From a virus: a stretch of DNA of 64,000 nucleotides. The notes beneath the pieces were generated by a model that was given only the letters and a program-made list of their open reading frames with translations, did not search any database and was not told where the DNA came from. The stretch covers positions 96,001 through 160,000 of the IMG/VR virus record IMGVR_UViG_3300031521_000011; one strand, 5' to 3'. This document shows, in pieces, positions 1,994 through 37,929 of this stretch (its first letter is position 1; each line of letters begins with the position of its first letter). A program made the translations under genes and the position numbers.

Positions 1994-2512
1994 ATGGCTG
2001 ATGAATTTTGGGACAGATTCGATGACATTCAGAAAGCGCGGCTTACGAATGATGATAAGACCGGCTTGATAGATATGTTCCGCGTTCAGATCTTTGACTT
2101 TGATGCGACTCTAAATATTCTCAACGGAAAGAAGTTGGAATTCACCGATGCTGCCGTGAAGATGTTTCTTGACCGCGCGATTAGAGATATCAACAAAGGC
2201 TCTCCGCCAACCAAATATACAATATTCGATTTTCCTGCAGACCAGGATGGCCTGCTGATATCTGGCGCCGCAATGTTTTCTTTAATGGCAGATGGTATCC
2301 TTCAGCTCAGGAATCAATATCAAGCGCAGGATTCTGGGTTGACGATGGGTATGTTCCAAAAGAGCGGCCAATACCAGCAATGGGCAGCCTTTCTACTGCA
2401 GCCGTACTTTGAGGATCGCGCTGAGTTCAAGCGCGGCATAATTATGAGAAGTGCCGGCTCTGGCTTCGTTGGCATCGGGTCCGAGTTTGGGTACAGAAAC
2501 GGCGGGTATTAA
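1994..2512 (+). CDS. Putative head-tail adaptor/neck protein
   Basis: Position between capsid and tail genes; helical ~170 aa; start moved to ATG 1994. Confidence 0.5.
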   Translation: MADEFWDRFDDIQKARLTNDDKTGLIDMFRVQIFDFDATLNILNGKKLEFTDAAVKMFLDRAIRDINKGSPPTKYTIFDFPADQDGLLISGAAMFSLMADGILQLRNQYQAQDSGLTMGMFQKSGQYQQWAAFLLQPYFEDRAEFKRGIIMRSAGSGFVGIGSEFGYRNGGY

Positions 2513-2513
2513 A

Positions 2514-3299
2514 ATGCTGAGTATAGCAAGTATTTCCGTTTTCAATACTCTCAGCACGGATTTCCTGCTCGTTAAGTTCGATATTACACCAACACAGGAA
2601 TCGGTGAATGACTATACCTTCAATATCTACAGGTCTCTGAGTCCAGAAGATACTTCCATGTTCTTCTGCATTGCTCACAACATAACAGAGACGCAGTATG
2701 AAGATCATGGCGTTAACCTAATGCGATTCGATACGAATTATTACTATAAGGTTAGAGCCAACAATGTCAACACTGGTGAGTCCGTCATGAGCAATTGTTA
2801 CGGTCACCTTTATCACACGGAGCCGGATAATTTGGCATTTATCATGCTCTATGAAAACCAGAGGCTCCTGGAGCTCATCAATAATGATCCGGTATCTGTG
2901 CTCTTAAAGAGGAGACTTGGCGTAAGATGCAGCAACTGCTGGGACTCAGTCAGGAAACAAGCAAGGCTTGCGGATTGCCCTGTATGTTATGGAACAGGAG
3001 TTGTTGGCGGATATTCCGCAGCGATATCAATAAGGATTGGATATCTCACTCCATTTCCTGGGCAGCAGATGGGTATCAACACAGACCGCGTAAGTGTGGA
3101 AGAGGCTCCCGTAACTGCATGGACTACAAATTATCCGATTCTTCAGCCAGATGATGTAATCGTTGACTCCACGCATAATTATCGATTTGAAATTGATGAT
3201 ATGCGGCCAATTTATAAGAATCAGAAAATGCTGATTCGCCAGACATTCACGATGCATCGTGTACCGGCAACCGATGTGATATTCACATTACCGGTATAG
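2514..3299 (+). CDS. Putative head closure/neck protein with FN3-like N-terminus and Zn finger
   Basis: FNIYRS...YYYKVRA FN3-like segment, CSNC...CPVCYGTG Zn motif, PILQPDDVIVD; position. Confidence 0.55.
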   Translation: MLSIASISVFNTLSTDFLLVKFDITPTQESVNDYTFNIYRSLSPEDTSMFFCIAHNITETQYEDHGVNLMRFDTNYYYKVRANNVNTGESVMSNCYGHLYHTEPDNLAFIMLYENQRLLELINNDPVSVLLKRRLGVRCSNCWDSVRKQARLADCPVCYGTGVVGGYSAAISIRIGYLTPFPGQQMGINTDRVSVEEAPVTAWTTNYPILQPDDVIVDSTHNYRFEIDDMRPIYKNQKMLIRQTFTMHRVPATDVIFTLPV

Positions 3300-3310
3300 G
3301 AGGAGGCCAC

Positions 3311-3925
3311 ATGCCAAATACACCAGTTCAAACTGTTCACGGCAAAAGTGTTGATATAGAATATTATATCGAGCAGTCATTCGTTCTATCTTTGCGGGAA
3401 ATTTTCAAAAACATGGATTTAGATTTTCCGTATGATGACGATGATGTTCTTACCCAGGTTTTGATAAGCTCTAATTTTCCGGAAGGTGAAGTACCCCTGA
3501 AGCTGCCCAATATCATTGTTGAGGGTATCTCTTATGAATTTTCGGAAACGAGTTTGAATAACAACTACTTGGATGATATAATGGAGGCAGGAGTGGTTGT
3601 AGGGTGGCGTTATGCCACATACATTCTGTTTAGCGCAACCATTACATGCATTGCGGAAAAGGACGGTGCAGCGAAGAATCTTGCAAATAAGGTTCTGAAC
3701 TACATAAAGTTCGACGCAAGAGAAATTTTTTCAGATGCATGCGCAATGGATATCAAGTCAGCGAGAAAGAGTCCAGGCGGATACAGAAGGAATTTACCGC
3801 AGAATTCATTCTCCCACTCAGTAAGTCTCTCTGGAGTTCTGCCATGGATTGGTGAAATCAGACCAATCAACCCAATTATCCTTGGTAAGATTTCAGTGAC
3901 AATTAAGGCAAGTCTGCCAACATGA
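3311..3925 (+). CDS. Putative tail terminator/completion protein
   Basis: 204 aa immediately upstream of sheath; LPNIIV motif; call is positional. Confidence 0.5.
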   Translation: MPNTPVQTVHGKSVDIEYYIEQSFVLSLREIFKNMDLDFPYDDDDVLTQVLISSNFPEGEVPLKLPNIIVEGISYEFSETSLNNNYLDDIMEAGVVVGWRYATYILFSATITCIAEKDGAAKNLANKVLNYIKFDAREIFSDACAMDIKSARKSPGGYRRNLPQNSFSHSVSLSGVLPWIGEIRPINPIILGKISVTIKASLPT

Positions 3926-3939
3926 CCAAATAAAGAGAG

Positions 3940-5520
3940 GTGCGAAAAATGTATAGGGAACCTGCAGTACGTTTGCGCCAGAAGCTTAACCCCGAGTATG
4001 TCCTGGGATCCAGCCCGAATTTGATCCCCGTCATCATGGGTTCAGGCGCTACGCAGTTCAAGAAAACCCAAGCGATGAAAAGGGGTAGCGATCTTTATGA
4101 CGTACTTCCTTCTGATGCTGTAGTCTCCATGCTGACTGTCGGTAACTCAAGTGGTGTTGCCGATTACTCTTCATCGAATGACTTTACCAAGGTGACGCCA
4201 AACATCTTGCATTGGGGCAAGCTGGCAACAAGCGGAACAGTCGTATCCGCCACAGATACAACAGTTGTCCTCGCCACGACTGATTCAGCCGTAGATGACT
4301 TCTATAATGACAAAAAAATTGTCATTGTGAATGGCGTTGGCGCAGGCCAGACAAGGGTAATCACCAATTATGTCGGATCGACAAAGGCCGCCACCGTCGT
4401 CGCCTGGACCGTGAATCCTGATGCTACATCGGAGTATGAAATCTGGACTAACTCGGTGAAGGAACCTGAAATGGGAGATGTTTACTATGTCACATATGTG
4501 GCCGGTCCTGAATCCGACCAGTATGAGCCAAAGTTCGTCTCCAGCCCAGAAGAAGTAGAGGAGTTGTACGGTCCGGAGCTCAAATACGAAAACGGACTGA
4601 TCAATCCTGTTGTAGTTGGAGCAAAGTGCGCTCTCGCAAATCGTGCAAGCATTATCTGCATATTGCAGGTGGCCCTTGCCGGTTCCACAGTGGCCGTCAC
4701 TGACTATGAAAAGGCCTTCACGGAATATCTGGCTCATATGACATACGCATATCGCATAATTCCCATGGACCTCAGCACTACCATAGGCGAAGCCGCAGTG
4801 GCGTATGTTCGCCAGATGTCTGATCCGGAAGAGAAGATGGAATGCAAGACCATGATAGGCGTTGTTCATTCATCTACAACACATGCCGAGCTTATGACAA
4901 ACATCGGCGCTTACGCTGCAGCCTTTGGCGAGAAGCGTCTGATGATTCCTTATCCAGACAAGGCTACGAAGAAGCTCAGCGATGGCAACATATATGAACT
5001 TCCGGCCCCATACCTGCTTGCGGCTTATGCCGGCAAACAGTCTTCTCAGCCAATCGAGCAATCGATGACGAACAGTACGCTCGACGGCTTCATCACCCTT
5101 AAGGGTGTTAAGATGTCTCGTGCGCAAAAGAACCTTCTCGCAGAAAAAGGTGTTATGCTGCTGGAGCAGGCATCTCCCGGATTCCCAATCACGGTGCGCG
5201 ATGCATTGACGACAGACATGTCCAGCATCCAGACGCGCCAGGATATGGTTGTGTCCATCGTAGACTTTGCCAGCAAGTATATCCGTGATGTACTCGCTCC
5301 GTATATCGGCCCGACGAATACAACGACAGAAACCATCACCCGTATGAGAGGTTCTGTCAACACCGCTATCGCAGTGCTCGTGAGCATGCAAGTCCTGACG
5401 GGTGGCAGGATCACAGATATCTACCGGGATAGCCTGAGTCCAGACACCATCATTGTGAAGATCTCGGTTGATGTTCCATACCCCTGCAACTATATCGATG
5501 TTGACCTGTTCGTCAACTAA
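3940..5520 (+). CDS. Contractile tail sheath protein
   Basis: 526 aa; YREPAV N-terminus, EEVEELYG, ITVRDALTTD, C-terminal VPYPCNYIDV typical of sheath proteins. Confidence 0.85.
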   Translation: MRKMYREPAVRLRQKLNPEYVLGSSPNLIPVIMGSGATQFKKTQAMKRGSDLYDVLPSDAVVSMLTVGNSSGVADYSSSNDFTKVTPNILHWGKLATSGTVVSATDTTVVLATTDSAVDDFYNDKKIVIVNGVGAGQTRVITNYVGSTKAATVVAWTVNPDATSEYEIWTNSVKEPEMGDVYYVTYVAGPESDQYEPKFVSSPEEVEELYGPELKYENGLINPVVVGAKCALANRASIICILQVALAGSTVAVTDYEKAFTEYLAHMTYAYRIIPMDLSTTIGEAAVAYVRQMSDPEEKMECKTMIGVVHSSTTHAELMTNIGAYAAAFGEKRLMIPYPDKATKKLSDGNIYELPAPYLLAAYAGKQSSQPIEQSMTNSTLDGFITLKGVKMSRAQKNLLAEKGVMLLEQASPGFPITVRDALTTDMSSIQTRQDMVVSIVDFASKYIRDVLAPYIGPTNTTTETITRMRGSVNTAIAVLVSMQVLTGGRITDIYRDSLSPDTIIVKISVDVPYPCNYIDVDLFVN

Positions 5521-5548
5521 TAAAAACAACTGGAAGGCGGTTTTATAA

Positions 5549-6199
5549 ATGGGTTTAGAGCAAGGTACAGTAATGCCCTCAGTACCCGGAAGCAATGGTC
5601 TTAATGTCGGAAGCACATCTTATGGTGCTGGTATAAATAACTGGGCTTTCAAGAATTCACATGTTCCCGACCCGAATGTGAATCCAAGCCGATTCATGTC
5701 AGCTGGACGCTGCGTGGTATACGCTCAAACATCATCAGGGCGGACAGCCGGAAAGACTCCTGAACTGGGATCGTTCGTTCCGATCGGTTTGATTCAAGCC
5801 TATTCGTGGACTGAACAACGCCAGATCGACATGCTGTTCGAGCTTGGCTCCGAACTGCCATACCTCGTCCCTGGTCGTACAACCGGCCAGATTGCCATCA
5901 CCAGAATGCTGATGCACGGCCGCGACCTTGCCAACGTTCTGTATGGCGCAACAGATCAGCTCAGCAAGAATACCTGGATCAGGTCCCTAAAGGATATCGC
6001 TACTCCTCTGAACCTGATGTTTGCGGCTTTTGCCAACTCCACAACGCAGGATACGGCAGCCAACGGCGTATTCTCCAGGGTATTCTCACATGCCTGGATC
6101 AATTCGCGCAGTGAGCAAATCGGCGCAGGTCAGACGGTTATCGGCGAAAACTGCAGTCTGATCTATGAAGATATCCTCAGCGTTGAGCTCTTCAAATAA
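5549..6199 (+). CDS. Tail tube protein
   Basis: Follows sheath; IGLIQAYSWTEQRQIDMLFELGS...VPG tube-like pattern. Confidence 0.75.
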   Translation: MGLEQGTVMPSVPGSNGLNVGSTSYGAGINNWAFKNSHVPDPNVNPSRFMSAGRCVVYAQTSSGRTAGKTPELGSFVPIGLIQAYSWTEQRQIDMLFELGSELPYLVPGRTTGQIAITRMLMHGRDLANVLYGATDQLSKNTWIRSLKDIATPLNLMFAAFANSTTQDTAANGVFSRVFSHAWINSRSEQIGAGQTVIGENCSLIYEDILSVELFK

Positions 6200-6215
6200 C
6201 ATTCAATCCGATTTG

Positions 6216-6248
6216 AAAAGGGATGCGGAAAGACCGCATCCCTTTTTT
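6216..6248 (+). terminator. Rho-independent terminator after tail tube
   Basis: AAAAGGGATGCGG-AAAGA-CCGCATCCCTTTTTT. Confidence 0.85.
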
Positions 6249-6251
6249 GTG

Positions 6252-6280
6252 TTGTACAAAAAAAATGTATACTATATAAT
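6252..6280 (+). promoter_or_regulatory. Sigma-A/70-type promoter for chaperone/tape measure genes
   Basis: TTGTAC-17 bp-TATAAT, followed by GGAGG RBS of gene at 6311. Confidence 0.7.
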
Positions 6281-6310
6281 GAGTATCGAAACTAAGATGG
6301 AGGTACTACA

Positions 6311-6763
6311 ATGGAAAAAGACAATATCGTCCCGATTGAAAGGAAACCGATCACAAGTGACCTAGATGCTATATTCGATGCCCTCATCCTGAAAGGTACG
6401 CTGGAGATGGAGGAAACGATTTTCCCCGGCTTTCTCTTGAAGGTGAAACCATTGGATGCAGCGGAAACATTGGCTGCCGAATCAGCCATAACTTTTGTGG
6501 ACTCCGCTCGTGATATCGTATTTCGGGCGCGTATGGTCAGCGTTCTTGCCCGTGCAACCATTTCCATTAATAGCAATCCTATCGAGCTTCCGAATTTGGA
6601 TGAAAAAGAAAATGACACCCGACGTCGTGAACTTCATATAAAATTCATGAAGCTGCCGCCGAATCGTGTCGAGGACTGCTATTCTTTCTACAGGAGAGTT
6701 CAAATCAAGCAGGATGAGATTTACAGCGCTCCTGTGATTGCGGAACAAGTCAAAAATTTTTAG
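6311..6763 (+). CDS. Tail assembly chaperone (gpG-like)
   Basis: 150 aa between tube and tape measure; ends in slippery A AAT TTT immediately before TAG. Confidence 0.75.
   Translation: MEKDNIVPIERKPITSDLDAIFDALILKGTLEMEETIFPGFLLKVKPLDAAETLAAESAITFVDSARDIVFRARMVSVLARATISINSNPIELPNLDEKENDTRRRELHIKFMKLPPNRVEDCYSFYRRVQIKQDEIYSAPVIAEQVKNF
6754..6760 (+). promoter_or_regulatory. Programmed -1 frameshift heptamer A AAT TTT
   Basis: X XXY YYZ in the correct phase; -1 frame stays open to 7176. Confidence 0.75.
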
Positions 6764-7176
6764 GCACCCCTTGGGGCATAATAAAGAGCACAGTGCTCAA
6801 CGCCAAGCAAGGGGTCATTACAGAAAAGCGCTTCAAGGATATGACGTCAATCCAATGGTACTTTCATTACCTTGAAGTATTGCAAGCCAATGAGAAAAAA
6901 GACAAAGCGACTATGGAATATATCGAACTTTTGACTATGTTTGTGAATCCTGAACTGGCAACTAAATGGCGTGAGATGAAGGCGCTCAAAGAAGCCAAGG
7001 AAGAAATTACGCCAGAGTCGTTCCCTGAAGTCTGGGCCAATATTAAATCGCAGATACCCGATATCGTTACAGTCCGATATTTGGATGCCAAGGCAAAAGA
7101 TCTGCTGCCCACATACCAACGTCCAAAGAAGAAGGAATATAAGACTCCTGGTATACAAATCAATAATTCCAAGTAG
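6760..7176 (+). CDS. Frameshift extension of tail assembly chaperone (gpT-like)
   Basis: -1 frame relative to gene 6311, open from the slip site (LGTPWGIIKSTVLNAK...); no clear RBS of its own. Confidence 0.7.
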   Translation, partial: LGTPWGIIKSTVLNAKQGVITEKRFKDMTSIQWYFHYLEVLQANEKKDKATMEYIELLTMFVNPELATKWREMKALKEAKEEITPESFPEVWANIKSQIPDIVTVRYLDAKAKDLLPTYQRPKKKEYKTPGIQINNSK

Positions 7177-7180
7177 AGTA

Positions 7181-10100
7181 ATGGTGGTGAGAGTTGTGGA
7201 ACAAGGTAATTCGATGGATGGTGCACTGCTCAGTGTACAGCAACAACAGCTCGATGAGTTAAGGAGCATTCGTGCACAGACGGCATCCGGTCCATTTGTC
7301 GCCGGCAGAGAGCAGACATCCTTCTCCCAATACTCGATGAATACCGGGGCGGCGCAGCAACAAGCGTCCGCCCAGGGTTTATTTATGCCGACGCCAAACG
7401 TTGGAGGAATCCCACTCTCTCCATTTACTCAAAATATGGGTAACTCCGCCGCAACATACATGCAGCAGGCAAATTTAAAACAGGCATTATTTAGCTATGA
7501 CCGCAATAGGGTATCCCGAGAGAACAGGGACTTAACCGGTATGCAGGCTGGTCAGAATATTTTTCAGGCTGGCTTGGCCGGGGCTGGTGCACTGGGCGGT
7601 CTCGGAGGAGATGCCCTTGGTACATCTATATTTGGTGGACTGGGATTAGCTGGCGGATTTGCCGGCGGCGCTATCGGCGGTGCTATTGGCGGTGCCGTAT
7701 TCGCATCTGCAGCGCAAGAGATGGGAGTGCAGTCCGGATATAGCAATTACTTGTTTCAGAATTCACAGCGCTTTATTAACCCATACGAATCTACAAATCG
7801 CAGATATGGTATGGGTTTCAATAACGATGAAAGGTCTGGCGCATCGTCATACTTGAGGTCATTATCGACAAGTAGAAATATTAGCGATACCGACATGAGT
7901 GGTATATTGAGCGGTGCAGTTGATCAAAACCTCCTGAAGGATGTTACAAATCTCAAGACATTCAAGGAAAAAATGGCTAAATTAACCGACAGCGTTAAGA
8001 CATCCGCCCTCTTGCTGAATGAAACATATCAGAACGTCACAAAGATGATGGGCGAACTTGAACGCGCGGGTGTATCAACCGGAAATTTCGATTACATGAT
8101 GGGAAAAATGAAGACACTGGGATCATTCACCGGCATGAATACGATGGAGGCCACAAATTCAACTTTGACCGTATCTGGCTCAAAAACCGGTACGGCATGG
8201 AATTCCGAGAGGCAGATCGAGAACTCCGCTTTGGATCTCAGGGTTATGCAGGTACTCAAAAATGGCGCTGATAAGAATCCAAATGGAACTCTTGGATTTA
8301 TAACGAATTTATATAATAATACCGAAGGCAGCACGGACGCAGAAAAACTGAGCAATCTTACAGTAAGGGCAAACCGAACCATGCAGGAAGTCATGGGAAA
8401 TCAAACCTTCCAATCAGCATATTCCGGATTGTTCAATTATAATGATGCCAGTGGTAAGTTTGAGCTTGACCAGAGTGCATATGATAGGTTTACTAGCGGG
8501 AATATGTCATATGCCGACATAATGGGTGAATCATCAAAGAAGATGACTGCATGGAGCGCGGATGGAAAGCATACCGGATTCCAGTGGCAGCAAATGGCTA
8601 ACGATACCTTTATGGATCTTACGGATGTACAGAAAGGAAAACTTCAAGGAACATTCTTTTCCACTGTTGGCCGTGATACGATGTTTGGTGAGACTGACCA
8701 ATCTACAATCATGGCAGGCCTTGGCATAGGCTCAACTGACGCTGATAGGAAATTGTTCACTCAACTTTACGGTACCCTTGGATCTAAAGGCAATATTTAT
8801 CAGAATGAGATGTCTCAAGAGGGATTCAATCAGACTATGCAGGCGAAAATAGATTCTGAATCTGAAGGTCTGTGGCAGTCAATCAAAAAAGTCTTTAACA
8901 CCATGTCTGATAAAATCGGAGATGCGGTTGAGCCTATGCGCAAAAGCATGGAAGAGGCTGGTGTTACATGGAAAGATATTTGGAACGGAACGCATCCAAC
9001 AAATCGCGTACAGTTTCAGGATCCATTAAATTTCACTGACTCAGGCGCTACCGGATCAGCAGAATCGATATCCAAGTCGATGAATGCATATATCTCAGAC
9101 TATCAAAAGTATGGTGGTACGACTAAGGATCTCGAATTGCTTGACCCTAAAGGACAACTCAGTGTGACTGGCGGAGGCGTTGATCAATATGGATCAAAGA
9201 TGACCGGTATCATGAAAATAGAAGATATCGACTATCTTAATAACGTCATGAACTCGAAAGCTAAAAGTACCTTCGAGCAGCATGGTGCCCTTATCCCAGC
9301 GCTTACTGTTGATGATATTGCCGCCTCAATGAATTTAACTTTCAATGAAGGGGACGACAAGCAGTCAATAACTCAAGAGGCGATGCTCCGTAAATATTCA
9401 AAAATGATACAACAGCTTCAGGGCGGAAAGGCCAGTGGCCTCAATGACTATGAGATCGTTGCAGGTAATCAGGCCCTTTCCACTATGTCGGATGCGCTTA
9501 AATGGATGGGCGTTGATGTGGCGCCTGTTAATAATCTAGGATACTCTAAAGAAATGCTTGCAACACTCCAAAATCAATATGGTGGAAAGACCACAGATTA
9601 CTATGGAGCCCTTAAAACACAAGCGGAGAAGTCTGCTAAATTAGATCTTACGAATAATGGATCAGATGCTACACGAAATGCAATAAATAGCCTAACGGCC
9701 GATGTAGCTGCGACAGGAGTAGCTCAAAGTAAAGCTGAATCTGATATTATGGCGGCCATGTCTGGATATTCAGATGCTGATTCGATTGCTGCCAGGGATC
9801 AGATTTCTAAACTTATGGACTCTATTCGCTCCGGAGATTTGGCTCCTGAAGATGCCAGAGCTCAATTTAATGCATTAAAATCATCAGGAAAAGCCAGTAG
9901 TCTTTATAGTGAAGTGTCAGACAAGTTCAACTTAGTAGCAGACAAAGCTATGGCAAAATCTTCAGGTGAAGCAATTCTCAAGACACGTAGTGAGGATAGT
10001 AGCAGGATTCTCGGGGCAATTAAAGCAGGAGGAAGTGTTGCCAGCCTCATTGGTGGAGATGCTGCATATAATAAATTACTGAGTGGTGCTACAGTTTCAA

Positions 10101-25775: not shown

Positions 25776-28724
<2,949 letters not shown>

Positions 28725-28761
28725 TATATCGAATATCAAAGAATTAAATGGGGAGGAAATA

Positions 28762-29343
28762 ATGAAATCTGAATGGGAACAAGCAACAGATTGGGAAAGG
28801 GAATGGCACGGAAACTGTGTCAACTCATACCAAGAGGAGACTAAACAGATTGAATACGCAAAACGAATGGGTCTGGTTATCGAAGGTAGAGATGGAAGAT
28901 ACCCTATTATCGATTTCCATGACAAATCTGTTATCGACGTTGGAGGTGGACCATATTCATTGCTACTCAAGGGAATCAATCTGCATGGAACCGTGCTTGA
29001 TCCTTGTAAATACCCTCAATGGGTATACCAAAGATATGCGGCGGCCGGAATCCATATCATCGAGATGAAGGCTGAGGACTACTGCAATCCACGCTATGAC
29101 ATTGGGCTTCTGTATAACTGTCTGCAGCATACAGAAAATCCAAAGAAGATCATTGAAAATATGAAAAAGATGTGCGACTTGATTTATATCCATGAATGGC
29201 TAGATACACCAATATCGGATGGCCACATACAGACAATCCGGGAAGCGGATCTTAATGAGTGGTTAGAAGGAATTGGAATGATTGGATATGAACGCTGGAG
29301 CGACACTGTTGTAACGCCGTACTACTACGGATTGTTTATATAG
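28762..29343 (+). CDS. Class I SAM-dependent methyltransferase
   Basis: VIDVGGGP motif I and YNCLQH motif; GGAGG RBS before ATG 28762. Confidence 0.8.
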   Translation: MKSEWEQATDWEREWHGNCVNSYQEETKQIEYAKRMGLVIEGRDGRYPIIDFHDKSVIDVGGGPYSLLLKGINLHGTVLDPCKYPQWVYQRYAAAGIHIIEMKAEDYCNPRYDIGLLYNCLQHTENPKKIIENMKKMCDLIYIHEWLDTPISDGHIQTIREADLNEWLEGIGMIGYERWSDTVVTPYYYGLFI

Positions 29344-29361
29344 AAAGAAGGAGTAAGCAGA

Positions 29362-30477
29362 ATGGAGAAACCAACAATTCATGTTATAGGGATGCCGCAT
29401 ATTCAAACCTCAAAAGCATATTGCAGAGATGCTTATGGAATGAAGATACTTCATTTTTGCCAAATGATGCATAAAGAAGGATACAAAATCATGCTTTATG
29501 CCAGTGAGGATAATGAGACGCCTGCCGAATTATTCACATGCATCACTAAAGCTCAGCAAGCCAAGCTGGGTTTTGAAGGCCCTGAAGACTATCTGAACAT
29601 ACAGTTCGATGTCACCAAGCCTATCTGGCAGATATTTCAGTCCAGAGTGACTTATTTTCTGAATAAAAATGTAAGTCCCGGAGACATCATTGGTACATTC
29701 TCTGGGCTTTGCGACAAATCCATTGCTGACGCCTTTCCGCAATGCTATTTTGTAGAACTCGGGATCGGGTATTCTGGCGTATTTTCTGGCTTCCGCATCT
29801 TTGAATCTTATGCCTGGATGCATACGATTTACGGAGCATCCACCGGAAACGCATCTGCAACAGACGGCAAATTCTACGATACTGTGATCCCGAATTATTT
29901 TAATCCCGATGATTTTCCATTTAAAAGCGAAAAGGAAGATTATTTCCTATTCGTCGGGAGAATGATCTATCGGAAAGGAATTGTCATCATCAACGACATG
30001 GCTAAGCGTATGCCAAATACTAAATTTATCTTTGCAGGACAAGGCGCCGTTCAGTATAAAAACAAAATAGGTTGTAGCGATGGAACTGTTCTTGAGGGGG
30101 ATAACCTGGAGTATATCGGAACTATCAATATAGAGCAGCGTGGTAAGCTGATGAGCGGAGCAAAAGCTCTCATTGTGCCTACTATTTACATCGGACCTTT
30201 TGAGGGCGTTCATGCAGAGGCTATGTTTTGCGGAACGCCCGTAATAACCACGAACTTTGGTTGCTTTACAGAGACGAATATCGATGGTGTTACTGGATAC
30301 CGATGCTCTACGATCAAACAATTCGTTGAAGCTGCAAGCAAGGTATCATCCCTCGATCCTATGAAGATACGGGCTCATGCCCTGTCAAAATTTTCTATGG
30401 ATAGTGTTGCTCCTCAATATACGAAATATTTTGAGCAAATTCAGGGTTTAGCTAACGGCGGATTCTATGAAATGTAG
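29362..30477 (+). CDS. GT4 (GT-B) glycosyltransferase
   Basis: VIPNYFNPDDF, LFVGRMIYRKG, GPFEGVHAEAMFCGTPVIT, DGVTGY. Confidence 0.85.
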   Translation: MEKPTIHVIGMPHIQTSKAYCRDAYGMKILHFCQMMHKEGYKIMLYASEDNETPAELFTCITKAQQAKLGFEGPEDYLNIQFDVTKPIWQIFQSRVTYFLNKNVSPGDIIGTFSGLCDKSIADAFPQCYFVELGIGYSGVFSGFRIFESYAWMHTIYGASTGNASATDGKFYDTVIPNYFNPDDFPFKSEKEDYFLFVGRMIYRKGIVIINDMAKRMPNTKFIFAGQGAVQYKNKIGCSDGTVLEGDNLEYIGTINIEQRGKLMSGAKALIVPTIYIGPFEGVHAEAMFCGTPVITTNFGCFTETNIDGVTGYRCSTIKQFVEAASKVSSLDPMKIRAHALSKFSMDSVAPQYTKYFEQIQGLANGGFYEM

Positions 30478-30533
30478 TTGAAAACTGGCGCACTGAAAGA
30501 TTATTAGGTATACTTAGATTCGGGGTGATAATT

Positions 30534-32108
30534 ATGGCTTTCGTAACGGCTGGCGTTAAAATCTACGCCACCAACTATAATAGAGTAAAGGGCAGAATAG
30601 CAGCTGAGTTAGCTCGGCGTGGATTGACATCCACATTGAGAAGCAATGTTACCGCTGGAATAAAGATGCTGGCAACTGATATGTCTAGCCTTCAAACCAA
30701 TATTAATAAGATTGCCACGCACTATTCTTCGCTTATGGCGGCTGGTACTAAAATCAGAGCTTCTGACTATAATAACCTGGATGACCAAGTGCAGGCGCAT
30801 GTCAACTTTGATATTTATTCGCTGGTCGCCACGGATTGCGCCTCAAGCTGTACCGGTGGATGCTATACCGCCTGCTCAGCAAGCTGTAAAAATACGTGTA
30901 CCGGTAACTGCTCAACGTCCTGTAGCGGAGCGTGTGGTGTTGTCTGCACCGCTTCATGTGGTGGCTGTGGCGCAGGCTGTTGGAGTACCTGCGCGGCGGG
31001 ATGCGCTGGCTGTAGCGGCACCTGCAATGGATGCACTGGACAATGCTCATCAACATGCAAAACGGCATGCGCCGGCTGTGGAACGAGTTGCGTGACGGCA
31101 TGCAGCACCGGATGCAATGGATGCACCGGGCACTGTAATGGATGCACTGGTCAATGTTCCGCCAAATGCGCTACTGTATGCGCAAGCTGCTCTGGACAGT
31201 GTAGCAGCGCATGCGCCGGTGGATGTCATGGATGCTCAGGACAGTGCGATACAGACTGCACAGGGGCCTGTACCGGGCGTTGTCTTACCGTATGCGGTGT
31301 ATGTGCCTCTAGCTGCTCAAGCGCTTGTAAGGGCTGCAGTGGGTGTTCTACGTCATGCGGATCTAACTGCTCGACGAACTGTGGTACAGATTGTGCTGGT
31401 GGATGCAATACCAACTGCACTGGCTCATGTACTTCGACCTGTTCTATAGCGTGCTATAGTGTTTGCGGGGGCTGCTCTAACGGATGCGCCAGCTGTACTG
31501 GAGGATGTCAGGGTGCCTGTAAGGGATGCGATACGACGTGTAGCACAGGATGCAGTGGGGCCTGTAAGGGGTCATGCAACAACGGCTGCACTGGTTGTGA
31601 TACAGTATGTACAGGCGGCTGTAAGGGATGCAGTGCATGTGGAAATGGAAGCTGCTCTCAATCATGCGGAATCGCGTGTTCGTCCTGCAAGGGTGCATGC
31701 ACTGGTTGCTCAACCGGATGTTCTACAAGTTGTAATGCCGCATGCACTACTGGTTGCGGAAGTACCTGTGATAATAACTGCGCCAGTGATTGTGAAGGTG
31801 GATGCACCGGTACCTGTAATGGCTGTTCTACCACATGCACCGGCGGATGTTCAACCGCCTGTACGGCTTGTGGTGGAAATTGCGATAATAACTGCGCCAG
31901 TAATTGCGAGGGTGGATGCACCGGTGGATGCACGGCATGCAATACTACATGCAGCAGTGGGTGTAAGGCAACCTGTAAAGATGCATGCGGCGGATGTGCG
32001 GCCGCATGCCTGGGTGGCTGCACTGGATGCGCCGCATTATGTACAGGTGGCTGCACTGGATGCAGCTCCAACTGTATGGGTTCATGCAAAACGGGTGCTA
32101 CTACCTGA
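30534..32108 (+). CDS. Giant Cys-rich CXXX-repeat protein (putative radical SAM substrate; fibre-like N-terminus)
   Basis: ~100-aa Cys-free N-terminus with three AGxKxxA repeats, then about 111 Cys (manual count) in CXXX/CXX periodicity; adjacent to a radical SAM/SPASM gene. Confidence 0.85.
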   Translation: MAFVTAGVKIYATNYNRVKGRIAAELARRGLTSTLRSNVTAGIKMLATDMSSLQTNINKIATHYSSLMAAGTKIRASDYNNLDDQVQAHVNFDIYSLVATDCASSCTGGCYTACSASCKNTCTGNCSTSCSGACGVVCTASCGGCGAGCWSTCAAGCAGCSGTCNGCTGQCSSTCKTACAGCGTSCVTACSTGCNGCTGHCNGCTGQCSAKCATVCASCSGQCSSACAGGCHGCSGQCDTDCTGACTGRCLTVCGVCASSCSSACKGCSGCSTSCGSNCSTNCGTDCAGGCNTNCTGSCTSTCSIACYSVCGGCSNGCASCTGGCQGACKGCDTTCSTGCSGACKGSCNNGCTGCDTVCTGGCKGCSACGNGSCSQSCGIACSSCKGACTGCSTGCSTSCNAACTTGCGSTCDNNCASDCEGGCTGTCNGCSTTCTGGCSTACTACGGNCDNNCASNCEGGCTGGCTACNTTCSSGCKATCKDACGGCAAACLGGCTGCAALCTGGCTGCSSNCMGSCKTGATT

Positions 32109-32131
32109 TCTGAATGGTCCGAACACACTAC

Positions 32132-32169
32132 AATATCTGCCCGAATCAGTTCGAGCAGATATTTTTTTC
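32132..32169 (+). terminator. Rho-independent terminator after Cys-rich gene
   Basis: AATATCTGCCCGAA-TCAG-TTCGAGCAGATATT followed by T run. Confidence 0.75.
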
Positions 32170-32198
32170 TTGTCAACCTATCTGTCCTGAGGTATAAT
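32170..32198 (+). promoter_or_regulatory. Sigma-A-type promoter for the radical SAM gene
   Basis: TTGTCA-17 bp-TATAAT; GAGGT RBS before ATG 32230. Confidence 0.75.
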
Positions 32199-32229
32199 AC
32201 GACCAGAATCAAAAAATAGCGAGGTAACT

Positions 32230-34572
32230 ATGTTAAGGAAGCAAGGATATCGCTCACAGTATCAGGACCTTTTCGTTCGCATGTATCCAGAACTGTGCGA
32301 AACTGGACATCAAATACTTGCAACTAAAACAATTACATTCGTGCTTACAGAGGCTTGTCCTCTGAGGTGTTCGTACTGTGTTACAGCGGGAACAATGCTT
32401 CTTGATGGAAATTTTCAGGAAGTGCCTATTGAGAAAGTTAAAATTGGAGATACAATCATGGGATTCGATGAAAATAATCCAATGAATAGAAAGCAGAGAA
32501 AAGTATTTCCATCTAAAGTTACAGCAATATTTGAAAGGGATGCTGAAGTTATTCGCATTTCCTTTGATAATGGGGAAAGCTTAGAAATCACAGAAGAGCA
32601 TCCGCTACTTACAGATAGAGGCTGGAAACTTGCTGGTAAAGTATCCTGTGCAAATCTCGTAAAAAGCTTAACACCCAATATAAAAAATACCATACCAGTA
32701 GACATTGATAGTCTTTCATACAAGACTGGGTATGTAGTTGCCTCTTGGAAGGGCGATGGTAGTGTCAAAAGATATACACGGACAGTTGGAAATACAGAAG
32801 GTCTTGATATGTTCAAAATTCGCCTTGCGGTGAAAGATGATGAAATAATAGACCGCACGGAAAGATTTAGCAGAAATATAGGTATTGAATTTTATAGAAA
32901 ACTATATCTAGTCTCTAAAAAATATAATATGAAAAAAGAAGCTTTGTTTGCTAATACTCGAAAAGTCTATAATCAGCTAAATAATTTGTTCACAGAAAAT
33001 ATTGGTAGAAATGAATCTGTGGAGTATGCAAGTGGATTTTTAGCTGGAATTTATGATACAGAGGGTAGTATAAGCCCTAAGGGAATTATACGCATCTCAC
33101 AACTAGAGGGTGAAGTACTGAACGAGATACAACGTTGCCTGTCTATTCTGAAAATACCATTCGTAAACGAGGTATTTTCAGGTAGGGGTGCACACAATAT
33201 TCGTATTATCGAACCCTCTTGTGAGCATACTCGAACACTCAATGCGCTACGCTTTATTAGGCAAGTACGTCCTTCTGTTGCGCGAAAAGGTGTAAGCGTT
33301 TTCTATAATAGATCCTTACTTCTTGAGACTCGCATAGTCAAAATAGAAAAGGTAGGTAATAGAAAAGTATACAATGTTGAAACCGACTCCCATACCTACA
33401 TTGCAAACTATATGGCAGTTCATAATTGCTATCAGTGCAATAAAGATCACTCAGCCATCATGAGTAAGGAAGTGGCTGATAAAGCCATCGATACAATCCT
33501 ATCCAATGAGGCTATGCATGGATATATGGACTCAAATCAATCCCCATCCGTCATCCTTGACTTTATTGGCGGTGAGCCTCTGCTGGAGGCAGAGCTCATG
33601 GATTATATCGTCCAACAGTTCAGGAAGAAAGCCTACCTTCTCAATCATCCATGGGCCAAGTACCATATGATAAGCATCTCATCCAACGGAATCCCGATTA
33701 TATCGAATCCGAAGGCTGTAGAGTTTATTAAGAAATACAAAAATAAATTGAGTCTCACCATCACAATCGATGGCAACAAGGAGCTCCATGATGCCTGCCG
33801 GGTGTATCCTTCAGGGGCTGGCTCCTATGACGACGTTCGCAAGGCCATAGACATTGCTCGGCAGTATGTCACAATGACAAACACCAAGGTGACTCTGGCA
33901 CCTGAAAACGTACAGTACCTGACTGAGTCAGTCACCCACCTGTTTGATCTTGGGTTCACAGATGTGCACGCAAATTGCGTATTTGAAAACGTTTGGAAGA
34001 TTGAAAATGCCCAGGAGCTATATCGACAGATGATAAAGCTTGCAGACATTATGATTGATGGAAAACTCTATGAAAAGTATGAGTGTTCCTTGTTCGATGA
34101 CTTTATTGGTCACCCCATGCTCGATAGCGATACACAAAATTGGTGCGGAGGCTCAGGTCAAATGTTGGCTATTGGCACAGATGGCCGATTATTCCCATGT
34201 ATTCGCTTTATGAAGTATAGCTATAGTAATCAAATTCGTGAAGAATACGAGGTTGGCGACGTTGATCGTGGCATCGACAGGAAAGAAGATAATAAGTATC
34301 TGCAGATTCTTGGAACAATCACGCGCCAGGCTCAATCTACAGATGAGTGCTTGACCTGCCCGGTAGCCAGCGGATGCTCCTGGTGCACAGGTTACAACTA
34401 CGATTACTTCGGCACGCCGAATCACCGGGCTACATTCATCTGCTGGCCGCATAAGGCGAGGGTGTTGGCCAACCATTACTACTGGTCAAAGCTGGCTGAA
34501 GCTGGTATCATAGATACCGTTCCTGTTCTTCATTTAACTGATGAAGATATTAAGATAGTCAGGGGCGAATGA
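32230..34572 (+). CDS. Radical SAM/SPASM peptide maturase (CXXX-repeat-target type), intein-containing
   Basis: Spliced CPLRCSYCYQ motif, FIGGEPLLE, TIDG, SPASM Cys (WCGG...FPCIRF...CLTCPVASGCSWC...IC); 430-aa extein. Confidence 0.9.
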   Translation: MLRKQGYRSQYQDLFVRMYPELCETGHQILATKTITFVLTEACPLRCSYCVTAGTMLLDGNFQEVPIEKVKIGDTIMGFDENNPMNRKQRKVFPSKVTAIFERDAEVIRISFDNGESLEITEEHPLLTDRGWKLAGKVSCANLVKSLTPNIKNTIPVDIDSLSYKTGYVVASWKGDGSVKRYTRTVGNTEGLDMFKIRLAVKDDEIIDRTERFSRNIGIEFYRKLYLVSKKYNMKKEALFANTRKVYNQLNNLFTENIGRNESVEYASGFLAGIYDTEGSISPKGIIRISQLEGEVLNEIQRCLSILKIPFVNEVFSGRGAHNIRIIEPSCEHTRTLNALRFIRQVRPSVARKGVSVFYNRSLLLETRIVKIEKVGNRKVYNVETDSHTYIANYMAVHNCYQCNKDHSAIMSKEVADKAIDTILSNEAMHGYMDSNQSPSVILDFIGGEPLLEAELMDYIVQQFRKKAYLLNHPWAKYHMISISSNGIPIISNPKAVEFIKKYKNKLSLTITIDGNKELHDACRVYPSGAGSYDDVRKAIDIARQYVTMTNTKVTLAPENVQYLTESVTHLFDLGFTDVHANCVFENVWKIENAQELYRQMIKLADIMIDGKLYEKYECSLFDDFIGHPMLDSDTQNWCGGSGQMLAIGTDGRLFPCIRFMKYSYSNQIREEYEVGDVDRGIDRKEDNKYLQILGTITRQAQSTDECLTCPVASGCSWCTGYNYDYFGTPNHRATFICWPHKARVLANHYYWSKLAEAGIIDTVPVLHLTDEDIKIVRGE
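32377..33426 (+). mobile_element. Intein with LAGLIDADG homing endonuclease (350 aa)
   Basis: Begins C-V-T-A-G-T, block B ITEEHPLLT, LAGLIDADG-like ASWKGDGSV and FLAGIYDTEGSI, ends VYNVET...YIANYMAVHN followed by +1 Cys. Confidence 0.93.
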
Positions 34573-35396
34573 GAATGAAATATAAACCGTTTTTTGGCGT
34601 TACAGAAAAGATTGATGACGATATTGCGGATATAAAGAAGGAATCTGCAAAGATTCGTGAACCCGAAATTGGATGTTCAGTAGGCTGCTTTGGCTGTGGA
34701 ACTACATGTATTGGAGCATGCTTTGCTGCATGCGTCGGTGCATGCATAGGTAACTGCGCTGGTAGCTCCATGGGGAATATGAAGCCCCCTGTCGTATGTA
34801 ATCAGCCAAAATGCATGAGCTGCAGCAGCGAAGAGGTATTAATGTCATTTCCTGTTACGGAGGATTTGAGCTTATATCTTGAAAAACTCCTTACCGAGAG
34901 GATATCGCTGCAAGAGATTATTATATCGGTAGGGAATGACCCAACCATCGAGAATGACGAAAAATTTCAAGAACTTATGCAGCAATATAAAGATGCATTC
35001 GTGGCGTGGGACTACTGCTACATAATGCTGGCAAAGGAATATGTTCCTGCAGAATATATGGGCGGTATTTCATTTTCATTCAACGAAAAAACATTCGTAT
35101 ATAAAGGAGAGGTAAAAAACATGAGCAATGCAAAAGTACTCACAGAAGCCATCGAGTCAGAGGAAAAGGATACCCTTCAGAACAGCTGGTACGACAGAGA
35201 GGCACTCCATGAGCTGATCAAGGAAGGCTCCACATCCATCGAAGTAATGAGGGAATTCAAGGAAGCCAACCGTATCTATCAAAAGACATGGAACGATCTG
35301 CTGAAGAAGTATTTCCCCAGCGTGGATACATCAACCAACGGCACGGCATCGTGGACTTGCGACTTCGAGGCCAACACGGTCACGGTCACCATGTAG
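34569..35396 (+). CDS. Short CXXX-repeat peptide fused to two CXXX-system accessory-like domains
   Basis: N-terminal CSVGCFGCGTTCIGACFAACVGACIGNC; two related ~90-aa domains ending ISFSFNEKTFVY and WTCDFEANTVTV; internal in-frame RBS+ATG at 34842 and 35121. Confidence 0.7.
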   Translation: MRMKYKPFFGVTEKIDDDIADIKKESAKIREPEIGCSVGCFGCGTTCIGACFAACVGACIGNCAGSSMGNMKPPVVCNQPKCMSCSSEEVLMSFPVTEDLSLYLEKLLTERISLQEIIISVGNDPTIENDEKFQELMQQYKDAFVAWDYCYIMLAKEYVPAEYMGGISFSFNEKTFVYKGEVKNMSNAKVLTEAIESEEKDTLQNSWYDREALHELIKEGSTSIEVMREFKEANRIYQKTWNDLLKKYFPSVDTSTNGTASWTCDFEANTVTVTM

Positions 35397-35409: not shown

Positions 35410-35841
35410 ATGAAAATATCTCTAAAGAATCTCCAGAGCCTATATCTAGCTCATCAGAATCTTCTCAGTTTCGAGTTGAGTGGCCGGTTTGGATATATGG
35501 CTGCCATAAATCTACAGGTTCTGGAACCGGCCTGGGAGGAATATGTCAAGCGCAGACAAATCCTCGAAATGTCCTACGCTCATAAAGAAGATGGGCAAAT
35601 TATGCGCGACTTAACCGGCGGTATCATCTTTGATGATGAAGAAAAATACCAATCAGAACTGGATAAACTCCAGCGCACAATCTCTAATGTCCCCCTATAT
35701 GTATTCGAGAGAGAAGATGTTGTAGAACATGGAAGAATACTGGGGGCCATCATGTACAACCTTCTACCCGTCATGCCGGATCTGGCGTGGCCAATTGTGC
35801 CCGTAATGGCAGAAAGCGAGGATGCATCATGTCAGCAGTAA
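35410..35841 (+). CDS. Hypothetical phage protein (DUF1617-like)
   Basis: 143 aa with GGAGG RBS; pattern resembles small proteins often found between fibre and lysis genes. Confidence 0.55.
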   Translation: MKISLKNLQSLYLAHQNLLSFELSGRFGYMAAINLQVLEPAWEEYVKRRQILEMSYAHKEDGQIMRDLTGGIIFDDEEKYQSELDKLQRTISNVPLYVFEREDVVEHGRILGAIMYNLLPVMPDLAWPIVPVMAESEDASCQQ

Positions 35842-36728
35842 TTGGGAGAAAGCCAAAGGTAGCTCTGACCAGGGGGCATGACCCCAGCACGCCCGGGAAG
35901 CGCTCGTTCGATGGAAAGCTCAGGGAGTGGGCCTTCAACGATGACATGGCCGCGCGCCTTAATAAGCATCTGCTGTTCAATGGGATCGACGTCCTATTGA
36001 CGATCCCTACCGGAGGAGCGGATGCGCTGCCGGACATCAACACCCACAATGGATATCTTAACCGCAAGGCGCGTATCGCCAAGATCAACGCCTGGAAGCC
36101 GGATCTGGAGATCGAGTTCCACGCCAATGCCTGTGGTACCAACTGGAATAGCGGCCGTGGGCAAATCCTCTATATCGCAGCGTCAAAGAGGGGAACGGAC
36201 TCCGAAAAATTCATCAATGTGCTTCGCAAATACATGCGCTCTGTGGCCGGCACTGGCTCTATCACGCCGGATCGTGGATTCGGCTATAAGAACTTTGATA
36301 TCGTGAATGGCGTCAAAGCTCCATGCTGCCTGATCGAGCATGCTTTCATGACGAATCACGAAGACGTTGCATTGCTATTGAGTGATGTGCAGCGCGATAA
36401 ATGGGCCGAGGCAGAGGCCCGGGCCGTCTGCGAGTGGTTCGCTATTCCGTTTAAAAACTACAAAAATGTTGTTACGCCGCCAAAGCCGCCAAAGCCACCG
36501 GTTCCGAAAATGCCCACCCTCAAGCGCGGCATGGTGAATAATGATGATGTTCGTAAGCTGCAGAATGCCATCAATAAGTTCATCGCAGACAAAAAGAATT
36601 GGCTTGATGTGGATGGAGACTTCGGAGAACTGACAGAACAGGCCCTTATAGCTGTCCAGAAGGCATTACTGCCCTCTTCCCCCTTGGGAGTTGCCGATCA
36701 AGCAACCTGGGACAAGCTACTGGCATAA
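35829..36728 (+). CDS. Endolysin: N-acetylmuramoyl-L-alanine amidase (Amidase_3) plus PG-binding domain
   Basis: RGH, LREWAFN, FHANA, LIEHAFMTN catalytic motifs; PPKPPKP linker; LKRG...VDGDFGELT...VQ PG_binding_1. Confidence 0.9.
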   Translation: MSAVIGRKPKVALTRGHDPSTPGKRSFDGKLREWAFNDDMAARLNKHLLFNGIDVLLTIPTGGADALPDINTHNGYLNRKARIAKINAWKPDLEIEFHANACGTNWNSGRGQILYIAASKRGTDSEKFINVLRKYMRSVAGTGSITPDRGFGYKNFDIVNGVKAPCCLIEHAFMTNHEDVALLLSDVQRDKWAEAEARAVCEWFAIPFKNYKNVVTPPKPPKPPVPKMPTLKRGMVNNDDVRKLQNAINKFIADKKNWLDVDGDFGELTEQALIAVQKALLPSSPLGVADQATWDKLLA

Positions 36729-36743
36729 CATGAGCCCAGCATC

Positions 36744-36769
36744 AGAGAGCGCGTCATGCGCTCTCTTTT
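36744..36769 (+). terminator. Rho-independent terminator after endolysin
   Basis: AGAGAGCGC-GTCAT-GCGCTCTCTTTT. Confidence 0.75.
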
Positions 36770-37897: not shown

Positions 37898-37929
37898 AGG
37901 GCGGGGATTTCTCCCCGCCCTATTTCTTT
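37898..37929. terminator. Probable bidirectional terminator at the strand switch
   Basis: AGGGCGGGGA-TTTC-TCCCCGCCCT hairpin between convergent gene blocks. Confidence 0.75.

Follow-up and report, generated by a model that had tools for sequence, protein, structure and literature searches.

A cysteine-ladder protein, a maturase and a helper fusion between tail-fibre and lysis genes

The window analysed here is a stretch of 64,000 nucleotides, bases 96001–160000 of one 168,244-base IMG/VR viral record (IMGVR_UViG_3300031521_000011) with a CheckV completeness of 100%. On its plus strand, three adjacent genes between 30534 and 35396 form a cassette that is a phage tail-module version of the CXXX-repeat radical S-adenosylmethionine (SAM)/SPASM protein-modification system. 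The first gene (30534..32108) encodes a protein of 524 amino acids with 111 Cys, the Cys-ladder protein, which by its composition, Cys spacing and conservation is presumed to be the substrate. The second (32230..34572) encodes a radical SAM/SPASM maturase interrupted by an intein. The third (34569..35396), whose start codon overlaps the stop codon of the maturase gene, encodes a 275-residue fusion of a short CXXX stretch with two helper domains. An initial annotation of the window had placed these three genes here, inside a block running from tail fibre to lysis genes, and had assigned them to this class of system. The genes and their late-region setting, with the fibre gene upstream and an endolysin gene downstream, were recovered in our analysis, and the assignment to the class was borne out by the family score of the maturase given below.

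The open reading frame (ORF) of the Cys-ladder protein starts with the ATG at 30534; the alternative GTG at 30525 falls within the likely ribosome-binding site. A conserved domain outside the Cys repeat occupies the N-terminus, followed by a CXXX/CXX region (30837..32087) that measures 417 residues from the first to the last Cys. The spacing between successive Cys in the protein is four residues in 84 cases, three in 25 and five in one, such that 109 of the 110 intervals are CXXX or CXX. Cys makes up 27% of the region; most of the other residues are Gly, Ser, Thr, Ala or Asn, with nine Asp, two Glu and no Pro. No single position of the spacers is conserved and no strong higher-order period is seen. 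A super-period of 15 residues (spacings of 4-4-4-3) was considered and rejected, as the 3-spacings are irregularly placed and the autocorrelation of the non-Cys residues is flat.

Several alternative frames on both strands are open for 100–240 codons over the same DNA. The frame was tested by comparison with the closest relative, locus L003 (81% identical). All 111 of the 111 Cys are conserved between the two proteins; the differences at codon positions 1, 2 and 3 number 120, 121 and 324; and the differing codons comprise 218 synonymous and 159 non-synonymous ones. The retention of every Cys together with the excess of third-position substitutions argues that the Cys frame is the coding frame. 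Differences in ladder length between relatives are insertions or deletions that keep the Cys period, the largest being of 37 and 28 residues. This pattern of substitution indicates that the gene is under selection that fixes the Cys and leaves the spacers free to drift.

Public gene calls over Cys-ladder genes are often split or in the wrong frame, as at L003 2190–3923, L004 7948–9471, L006 ~5880–6400, L089 ~7350–7990 and L094 (phage SPN3US) 3938–4754. Protein databases and proteomic searches would for this reason miss such proteins.

An intein interrupts the radical SAM motif of a TIGR04115 maturase

The maturase is made as a 780-residue precursor with a 430-residue extein. Among the NCBIfam hidden Markov models (HMMs), it scores 403.6 bits on TIGR04115 (cut-off 350; E 9.8e-121; residues 395–751), and 395.4 bits in a genome-wide search. 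Other families are matched at a distance: the PapB family (NF047865) at 173.5 bits, which against a cut-off of 340 makes the enzyme a relative and not a member; the anaerobic sulfatase maturase family at 48 bits; and TIGR04463, the family of CrpC, at 43.8 bits. The seven Cys of the SPASM region are invariant in 32 maturase homologues. The closest solved structure is that of CteB (5WGG/5WHY; E 2e-39), with a profile alignment that begins at CteB residue 88 and leaves the N-terminal part of CteB uncovered. According to published work, this N-terminal part is the peptide-recognition (RRE) domain that reads the substrate. The window's maturase is devoid of it, and the small helpers or the conserved domain of the target may have taken over recognition.

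The intein is of class 1, spans 350 residues (32377..33426; residues 50–399) and contains a LAGLIDADG homing-endonuclease domain, as seen from matches to Intein_splicing, LAGLIDADG_3 and Hint. It sits between Tyr49 and the third Cys of the CX3CX2C motif of the maturase, begins with Cys and ends with His-Asn, and the Cys at +1 is the third cluster ligand. Its boundaries were set with the intein-less homologue P0001, to which the extein is 81% identical. Since the insertion interrupts CX3CX2C, the radical-SAM cluster site exists only after splicing. The same insertion site is used in four other phage lineages (L008, L054, L076 and L079). In the maturase of L085, of which only the C-terminal junction was read, an apparent intein lies at a different site, before the second Cys; the database homologues P0039 and P0065 also carry Hint or intein domains.

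Helper domains related to TIGR04116

The 275-residue fusion begins with a mini-CXXX stretch (approximately residues 36–85) that has eight Cys at CXXX/CXX spacing. Helper domain A (residues 85–180; nucleotides 34821–35108) and helper domain B (residues 184–275; nucleotides 35118–35393) follow and are paralogous to each other. The same fusion occurs in L003. The two domains are separate genes in other phages, with products of 91–107 residues (100–107 and 91 residues in L004 and L006), and the HMMs of the two families match separate small genes beside the maturase gene in many loci. Helper B has a weak match to TIGR04116 (17.1 bits; cut-off 50; E 0.0045). It groups in one HMM with a true member of that family (104.6 bits), and the two have in common a C-terminal strand motif, W-x-C/I-D/N-F. 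The AlphaFold2 (AF2) model of helper B has a predicted local distance difference test score (pLDDT) of 91.7 and presents a strand-helix-helix-strand-strand order with long helices. A fold search with this model returned generic helical hairpins and no RRE-like match. A complex prediction of helpers A and B with the conserved target domain gave a score of 0.00; it was run with no controls and speaks neither for nor against binding.

The initial annotation had named TIGR04114–TIGR04116 and TIGR04119 as the families to compare with the three proteins. TIGR04115 was confirmed, TIGR04116 was reached below its cut-off, and the other two were not found: the Cys-ladder protein has no TIGR04114 match (on TIGR04117 it scores 19.2 bits against a cut-off of 50), and TIGR04119, the second, SPASM-only maturase, has no match among the six window proteins scanned.

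The spacers of the mini-CXXX stretch (34674–34760, residues 36–63) are hydrophobic (Phe, Ile, Val, Ala), unlike the polar ones of the big protein. Instead of serving as a substrate, the stretch may bind a cluster or metal, or be membrane-like. A further family of 146–185 residues, probably helical as judged by eye and with no Pfam match on record, stands beside the cassette in several phages and prophages (L004 9506–9997; L006 6791–7689, in two copies; L088 8159–8599; L089 8007–8456; L092 6205–6705; L093 6122–6679). It is absent from the window, where an unrelated protein of 143 residues (phrog_1401, described below) is found instead.

A three-helix domain marks the Cys-repeat proteins

The N-terminal domain of the Cys-ladder protein (30534..30836; ~101 residues in the window) was recognized in a family alignment by its triple I-x-A-x-D-F/Y-x-x-L helix repeat. 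In the family, aligned from 29 examples, the domain has ~105 residues and three similar helix-forming segments of the type I-x-A-x-D-F-x-x-L-K-x-R-V-x-x-E-x-x-R-R. It is usually N-terminal to the Cys ladder and is C-terminal in six lineages (L006, L010, L011, L017, L050 and L072). The domain HMM finds 81 ORFs in 80 loci, all of them Cys-repeat ORFs save truncated calls and one lone copy. The domain corresponds to phrog_6085, of unassigned function, and its AF2 model (pLDDT 72.9) consists of three helices.

An exhaustive phmmer search with the window's domain returned a single protein, P0121 (159 residues, domain plus CXXX), probably because Cys-ladder genes are miscalled in public protein sets. 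A word-indexed profile search for longer proteins with the domain was swamped by candidates and gave two matches. A tblastn search of 50,697 phage records with three versions of the domain returned a single contig, uncultured and faecal.

The cassette recurs in tail modules of phages and prophages

Homologues of the maturase number 1,533 in a word-indexed protein search. A first IMG/VR scan with the single maturase protein gave no match, as did megablast of the cassette against the phage collection; an alignment-based IMG/VR scan matched at least 212 viral contigs, of which the best 80 were fetched. Of 88 fetched loci, 83 have a Cys-periodic ORF no more than a few kb away from the maturase gene. 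These ORFs encode 36–816 residues with up to 126 Cys, and the main one is always on the strand of the maturase. Nearly all of their products share the ~105-residue domain, and the maturase almost always comes with such a protein and with one or two small helpers of the TIGR04116 kind. Over 95 distinct target proteins, 97% of the Cys spacings of eight or less are 3 or 4 (4,275 of 4,390).

The genes around the cassette are those of tails. Tail fibre, tail, baseplate, virion structural protein and endolysin are the commonest PHROG assignments among 136 large flanking genes (from 34 of the 40 dereplicated loci), and at least 25 of these 40 loci have a baseplate-J, P2-I, tail-fibre, lysin or collagen-like marker, as counted with few seed families. 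All four homologues from bacterial genomes with readable context (Tissierella praeacuta, Dehalobacter sp., Vallitalea maricola and Anaerobacterium chartisolvens) belong to tail modules of P2/Mu-like prophages, where they directly follow the tail-fibre gene. The order there is baseplate J, P2-I/Gp48, tail fibre and cassette, with a holin or amidase gene next in two of the four. Each of the four has a target of ~227–250 residues with the same ~105-residue domain, and NCBI names these maturases 'radical SAM peptide maturase, CXXX-repeat target family'. The initial annotation would have been contradicted by a cassette unlinked to structural modules in other phages; the outcome is in its favour, with the cassette recurring beside tail-fibre, baseplate and endolysin genes in viral contigs and prophages.

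The targets themselves vary at their distal ends. In L042 and L054, a Cys ladder of ~220 residues is fused to two ALK/LTK-type glycine-rich domains (PF12810; E ~1e-98). In the clade L048–L066, the head of conserved domain plus ladder is 83–97% identical, and a C-terminal domain of ~180 residues either is missing or has 21–97% identity (six of eight at 62% or less). Receptor-binding proteins of phages usually look like this, with the proximal part conserved and the distal part exchanged.

In one large clade (L022, L023, L025, L026, L029–L033 and L035, at ~6011–7190; L038, L039, L043, L044, L046 and L047), the target is split into two adjacent ORFs in the same frame with one or two stop codons between them, mostly TAA. 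The first ORF holds the conserved domain and ~17 Cys, and the second is Cys-only with 50–64 Cys; in the L022 group this second ORF has no in-frame ATG, GTG or TTG ahead of the ladder. For the L022-type loci, a single gene with a recoded stop was considered and set aside in favour of two genes, the more likely arrangement given that TAA predominates among the stops and that double stops occur. In L006 (4878–6775), a scaffold gap of 100 N lies between a fibre-like N-terminal ORF and a Cys ladder with the conserved domain at its end, and the two may be one fused gene.

Genomic setting in the window

The first 38 kb of the window, on the plus strand, are a myovirus-type late region with tail sheath, baseplate wedge and tail fibre, and the cassette genes run in the same direction as the late genes for tail fibre and lysis. 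The fibre gene (25776..28724) encodes a collagen-like protein of 982 residues with a phage tail collar domain (Pfam Collagen and Collar; tail-fibre PHROGs). A methyltransferase-like gene (28636–29343) and a GT4 glycosyltransferase gene (29362–30477) come between it and the Cys-ladder gene. Downstream of the cassette lie the gene of a 143-residue phrog_1401 protein (35410..35841; E 1.6e-6; function unassigned) and the endolysin gene (35787..36728; Amidase_3 and PG_binding_1, by Pfam and PHROG matches), with which the lysis block follows; two small proteins, each with one hydrophobic stretch as judged by eye, come after the endolysin. From the fibre gene to the endolysin gene, no terminator-like site was found in the intergenic gaps, and the few weak matches all fall within coding sequence; strong terminator-like hairpins occur past the endolysin gene, at 36744–36766 and 37898–37921. 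A sigma-70-like promoter match (32170..32198, plus strand; 11 of 12 positions, by consensus match only) lies in the 121-bp gap between the Cys-ladder and maturase genes. Scans of the neighbouring genes with NCBIfam, Pfam and PHROG found no exporter or transporter, protease or immunity family, in agreement with what the initial annotation had noted.

Whether the phrog_1401 protein is part of the system is uncertain. It is conserved in L003, its sole homologue among the fetched loci, and has no NCBIfam or Pfam match. The GT4 gene stands directly upstream of the Cys-ladder gene both in the window (block 28636–30477) and in L003 (1021–2151). A glycosyltransferase-family gene is directly upstream of the maturase gene in L006 (7947–9017), and one in L050 (12224–13282) is ~3 kb downstream of it; the homologues of the window's glycosyltransferase are those of L003 and L050. 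Since the ladder is 29% Ser/Thr and the adjoining collagen-like fibre has Gly-X-Thr runs, the sugar acceptor could be either, and the methyltransferase-like enzyme may likewise act on one or the other.

Comparison with known systems

The CXXX-repeat peptide modification system was reportedly defined, bioinformatically, by Haft and Basu in 2011. Its canonical form consists of a TIGR04115 maturase, TIGR04114 or TIGR04117 targets, a TIGR04116 helper and a second maturase, TIGR04119. The cassette in the window resembles it in a maturase above the TIGR04115 cut-off, a CXXX-repeat target and TIGR04116-related helpers. It differs in that the phage targets have no twin-arginine translocation (Tat) signal, the ladder reaches 417 residues, a new domain of ~105 residues is present, the helpers score below the HMM cut-off, the genes lie in phage tail modules, and the maturase is interrupted by an intein in the window and in at least five other phage lineages.

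Locus L002 (MT837480.1, a faecal contig; 2222–6270) presents the cellular form, with target, TIGR04115-type enzyme, TIGR04119 and TIGR04116. Its target has 174 residues and a Tat-type signal, and the set of genes is followed by two ORFs that by eye resemble TatA and TatC. A Tat-type signal of this kind was seen in no phage target that was read, as judged by eye and without a predictor, and phmmer with the L002 TIGR04119 protein gave only weak matches in phage loci, to TIGR04115-type enzymes and two ORFs of L078. L002 was deposited as 'Bacteriophage sp.'; no phage gene was seen in it, most of its ORFs not having been searched. By gene content alone, it is probably a bacterial system from Bacteroidota.

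These comparisons temper two points of the initial annotation. The contrast it drew with short bacterial precursors was overstated, as the canonical target has 174 residues and the 'bacterial' homologues nearest to the window belong to prophages, their targets having ~227–250 residues. The term RiPP-type (a peptide made by the ribosome and modified after translation) does not fit in the classical sense either: no leader-plus-RRE logic, protease or exporter was found.

The nearest characterized relatives of the maturase are the radical SAM/SPASM enzymes of ranthipeptides, CteB (for SCIFF) and PapB (for freyrasin), although it scores below the cut-offs of both families. Both enzymes form Cys-sulfur-to-carbon thioethers in Cys-rich substrates (PMC9413430, PMC10739248). 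While their substrates are short leader-plus-core peptides, the presumed substrate here has 524 residues, and the Asp/Glu acceptors that PapB needs are scarce in its ladder.

A closer parallel in size is CrpA/CrpC of Methanococcus voltae, in which a SPASM enzyme installs ranthionine links on a 28.8-kDa Cys-rich repeat protein (PMC13692751, 2026). As in the window, a protein-sized and repeat-built Cys-rich substrate adjoins its SPASM enzyme, with a non-Cys part at its N-terminus and the Cys region at its C-terminus; we count as a further likeness the small paralogous partner, which may act as a chaperone. The differences are that CrpC belongs to TIGR04463, the CrpA repeat has 17 residues with a C-X-X-Q/D motif, and the cluster is cellular and archaeal. 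CrpA is suspected of binding metal (PMC13692751). With the cross-linking of CrpA, a protein-sized SPASM substrate is no longer without precedent.

Among phages, Salmonella phage SPN3US has two ORFs of ~133 residues, each with a non-Cys head and ~20 Cys at CXXX/CXX spacing, located just after the gene for 'virion structural protein 20', with two radical SAM genes downstream of them. Of these ORFs, one has no annotation; the other shares sequence with an annotated gene, the end of which misfits its frame. The SPN3US-like giant phages of Salmonella and Erwinia are unlike the window in their maturase (~23% identical), their small tandem targets and their two radical SAM genes. A likeness of idea only, the hardening of a phage particle by covalent bonds within or between proteins, exists with the chainmail of the HK97 capsid. 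Its cross-links are autocatalytic isopeptide bonds; here a dedicated radical enzyme would act on a tail-linked protein.

Our literature search found no description of the system: 'CXXX repeat' with radical SAM returned none, TIGR04115 was met once in passing, and nothing links the radical SAM genes of SPN3US to Cys-repeat proteins. The enzyme family has been defined and automatically annotated since TIGRFAMs, so the kind of system is already known. What appears undescribed is its placement in tail modules, the signature domain, the loss of both TIGR04119 and the Tat signal, how large the ladder is and the recurrence of the intein.

Proposed function and alternatives

A mechanism for the cassette can be proposed from these comparisons. 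We put it at slightly better than an even chance that the intein-gated TIGR04115 maturase, with its TIGR04116-like helpers, cross-links the giant Cys-ladder protein and that the product is most likely a tail-associated appendage. The intein would splice out to give a maturase able to bind the radical-SAM cluster. The spliced enzyme would then work processively along the 417-residue ladder, docking possibly through the conserved target domain, the helpers or both, and would install many intramolecular cross-links. These would most likely be Cys-sulfur-to-carbon thioethers, the links made by CteB and PapB; it is from kinship to these two enzymes that we infer the chemistry. The outcome would be a covalently laced rod or cable, resistant to proteases and to reduction.

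The product would most likely serve as a fibre-like appendage of the tail, or as a segment of a fibre, and not as a secreted peptide. This reading follows from the absence of a signal peptide, an exporter and a protease, from the slot just after the fibre gene, and from the distal glycine-rich or swappable domains found elsewhere. A protein made late in the cytoplasm without export genes would be assembled into particles or released at lysis. The tail slot, the fusions and the swapped domains are indirect evidence, yet they point toward a fibre. A broader proposal, that many phages and prophages of anaerobes use a dedicated radical SAM/SPASM enzyme to lace a fibre-like tail protein with dozens to more than 100 Cys-derived cross-links, the three-helix domain being the handle for assembly or recognition, is more tentative, and we would place it somewhat short of even.

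Several points weigh against an enzyme-laced appendage. Because Asp and Glu are so scarce (nine and two in 417 residues), the PapB-type logic of Cys-to-Asp/Glu acceptors cannot apply as such, and Ser, Thr, Ala, Asn, Gly or residues next to Cys must provide the acceptor carbons. On the PapB family the enzyme falls far short of the cut-off (173.5 versus 340 bits), and we found in the literature no biochemical study of a CXXX-repeat system and no characterized TIGR04115 member. Cargo genes are commonly found in the slot that separates tail-fibre from lysis genes, which makes position alone ambiguous. The 524-residue protein was described at first as protein-sized and fibre-like; its size stands, but no fibre, collar or attachment domain is recognizable in it by Pfam or PHROG, only phrog_6085. 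The conserved domain has no Pfam or PDB sequence relative in profile searches, and a fold search with its model gave nothing beyond generic helical hairpins. As it is exclusive to Cys-repeat proteins, it could equally be a handle for the maturase. The phage collection holds no cultured phage with the domain, hence no virion proteome to consult, and the presence of the Cys protein in virions is something we infer.

In the main alternative, which we consider unlikely, the matured Cys protein would be phage cargo that acts in the infected cell or is released at lysis, and not a part of the virion. It could store metal or sulfur by binding them, buffer redox state or act on neighbouring cells, and would follow the fibre gene only because insertion is tolerated there. 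In favour of cargo, no fibre, collar or attachment family was detected in the window's protein; the canonical bacterial system is cellular with a Tat-exported target; and the archaeal precedent, CrpA, is a cellular protein suspected of metal binding. The restriction of the conserved domain to Cys-repeat ORFs, to the exclusion of other tail proteins, is as compatible with a handle for maturation as with an anchor in the virion. Against cargo speaks the retention of the same slot in phages as different as a 168-kb myovirus-like phage, P2/Mu-like prophages and SPN3US-like giants. The fusion of the ladder to distal glycine-rich or swappable C-terminal domains argues in the same direction, as do phage targets that by eye are without the Tat-type signal of the L002 kind.

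A second alternative, which we regard as improbable, allows a location in the virion and changes the chemistry: the ladder would mainly bind metals or iron-sulfur clusters or form disulfides, and the enzyme would oxidize Cys or Ser (as anaerobic sulfatase maturases do), epimerize residues or perform other carbon-hydrogen chemistry. A region with 27% Cys and small polar spacers resembles metal-thiolate proteins, Asp/Glu acceptors are almost absent, the anaerobic sulfatase maturase family is matched at 48 bits, and no determination of the TIGR04115 reaction was found in the literature. The nearest relatives by score (PapB, 173 bits) and by structure (CteB, E 2e-39) are, however, both thioether-forming, and all seven SPASM Cys are invariant. 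The conservation of every Cys while the spacers drift fits the thioether and metal models alike and does not decide between them.

It is very unlikely that the true substrate is the mini-CXXX stretch of the helper fusion, with the giant protein left unmodified. That stretch does have eight Cys spaced as CXXX/CXX; its translation is coupled to that of the maturase gene, and L003 conserves it. Among the helpers read, however, the fused ladder is confined to the window and L003, with scattered Cys in a few of the others, and in 83 of 88 loci the maturase is found together with the large Cys-periodic ORF. Finally, a low-complexity artefact, with the real genes in the other frames open for 100–240 codons that automatic callers chose in relatives, is a negligible prospect: it is refuted by the codon-position comparison with L003, in which the third-position excess belongs to the Cys frame and none of the 111 Cys is lost. 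In 80 loci, moreover, the conserved domain continues in frame into the repeats.

Implications

If the laced Cys-ladder protein is part of the virion, covalent cross-linking of a phage structural protein by the phage's own radical enzyme would be seen here for the first time. The scale, with more than 100 sites in one chain, would be unknown for thioether-forming enzymes. It would suggest that such tail parts can mature only in hosts that support the oxygen-sensitive chemistry typical of radical SAM enzymes, and the product would represent a natural route to long protein rods that resist proteases and reduction. For annotation, the wrong-frame calls over Cys-ladder genes make proteomic searches miss their products, and the proposed function would explain a recurrent, mis-annotated gene of gut-phage tail modules. 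It would also give a function to the TIGR04115 family, whose nearest members are phage or prophage genes in every context examined here. An enzyme-hardened virion appendage would be a class of virion protein modification not described so far.

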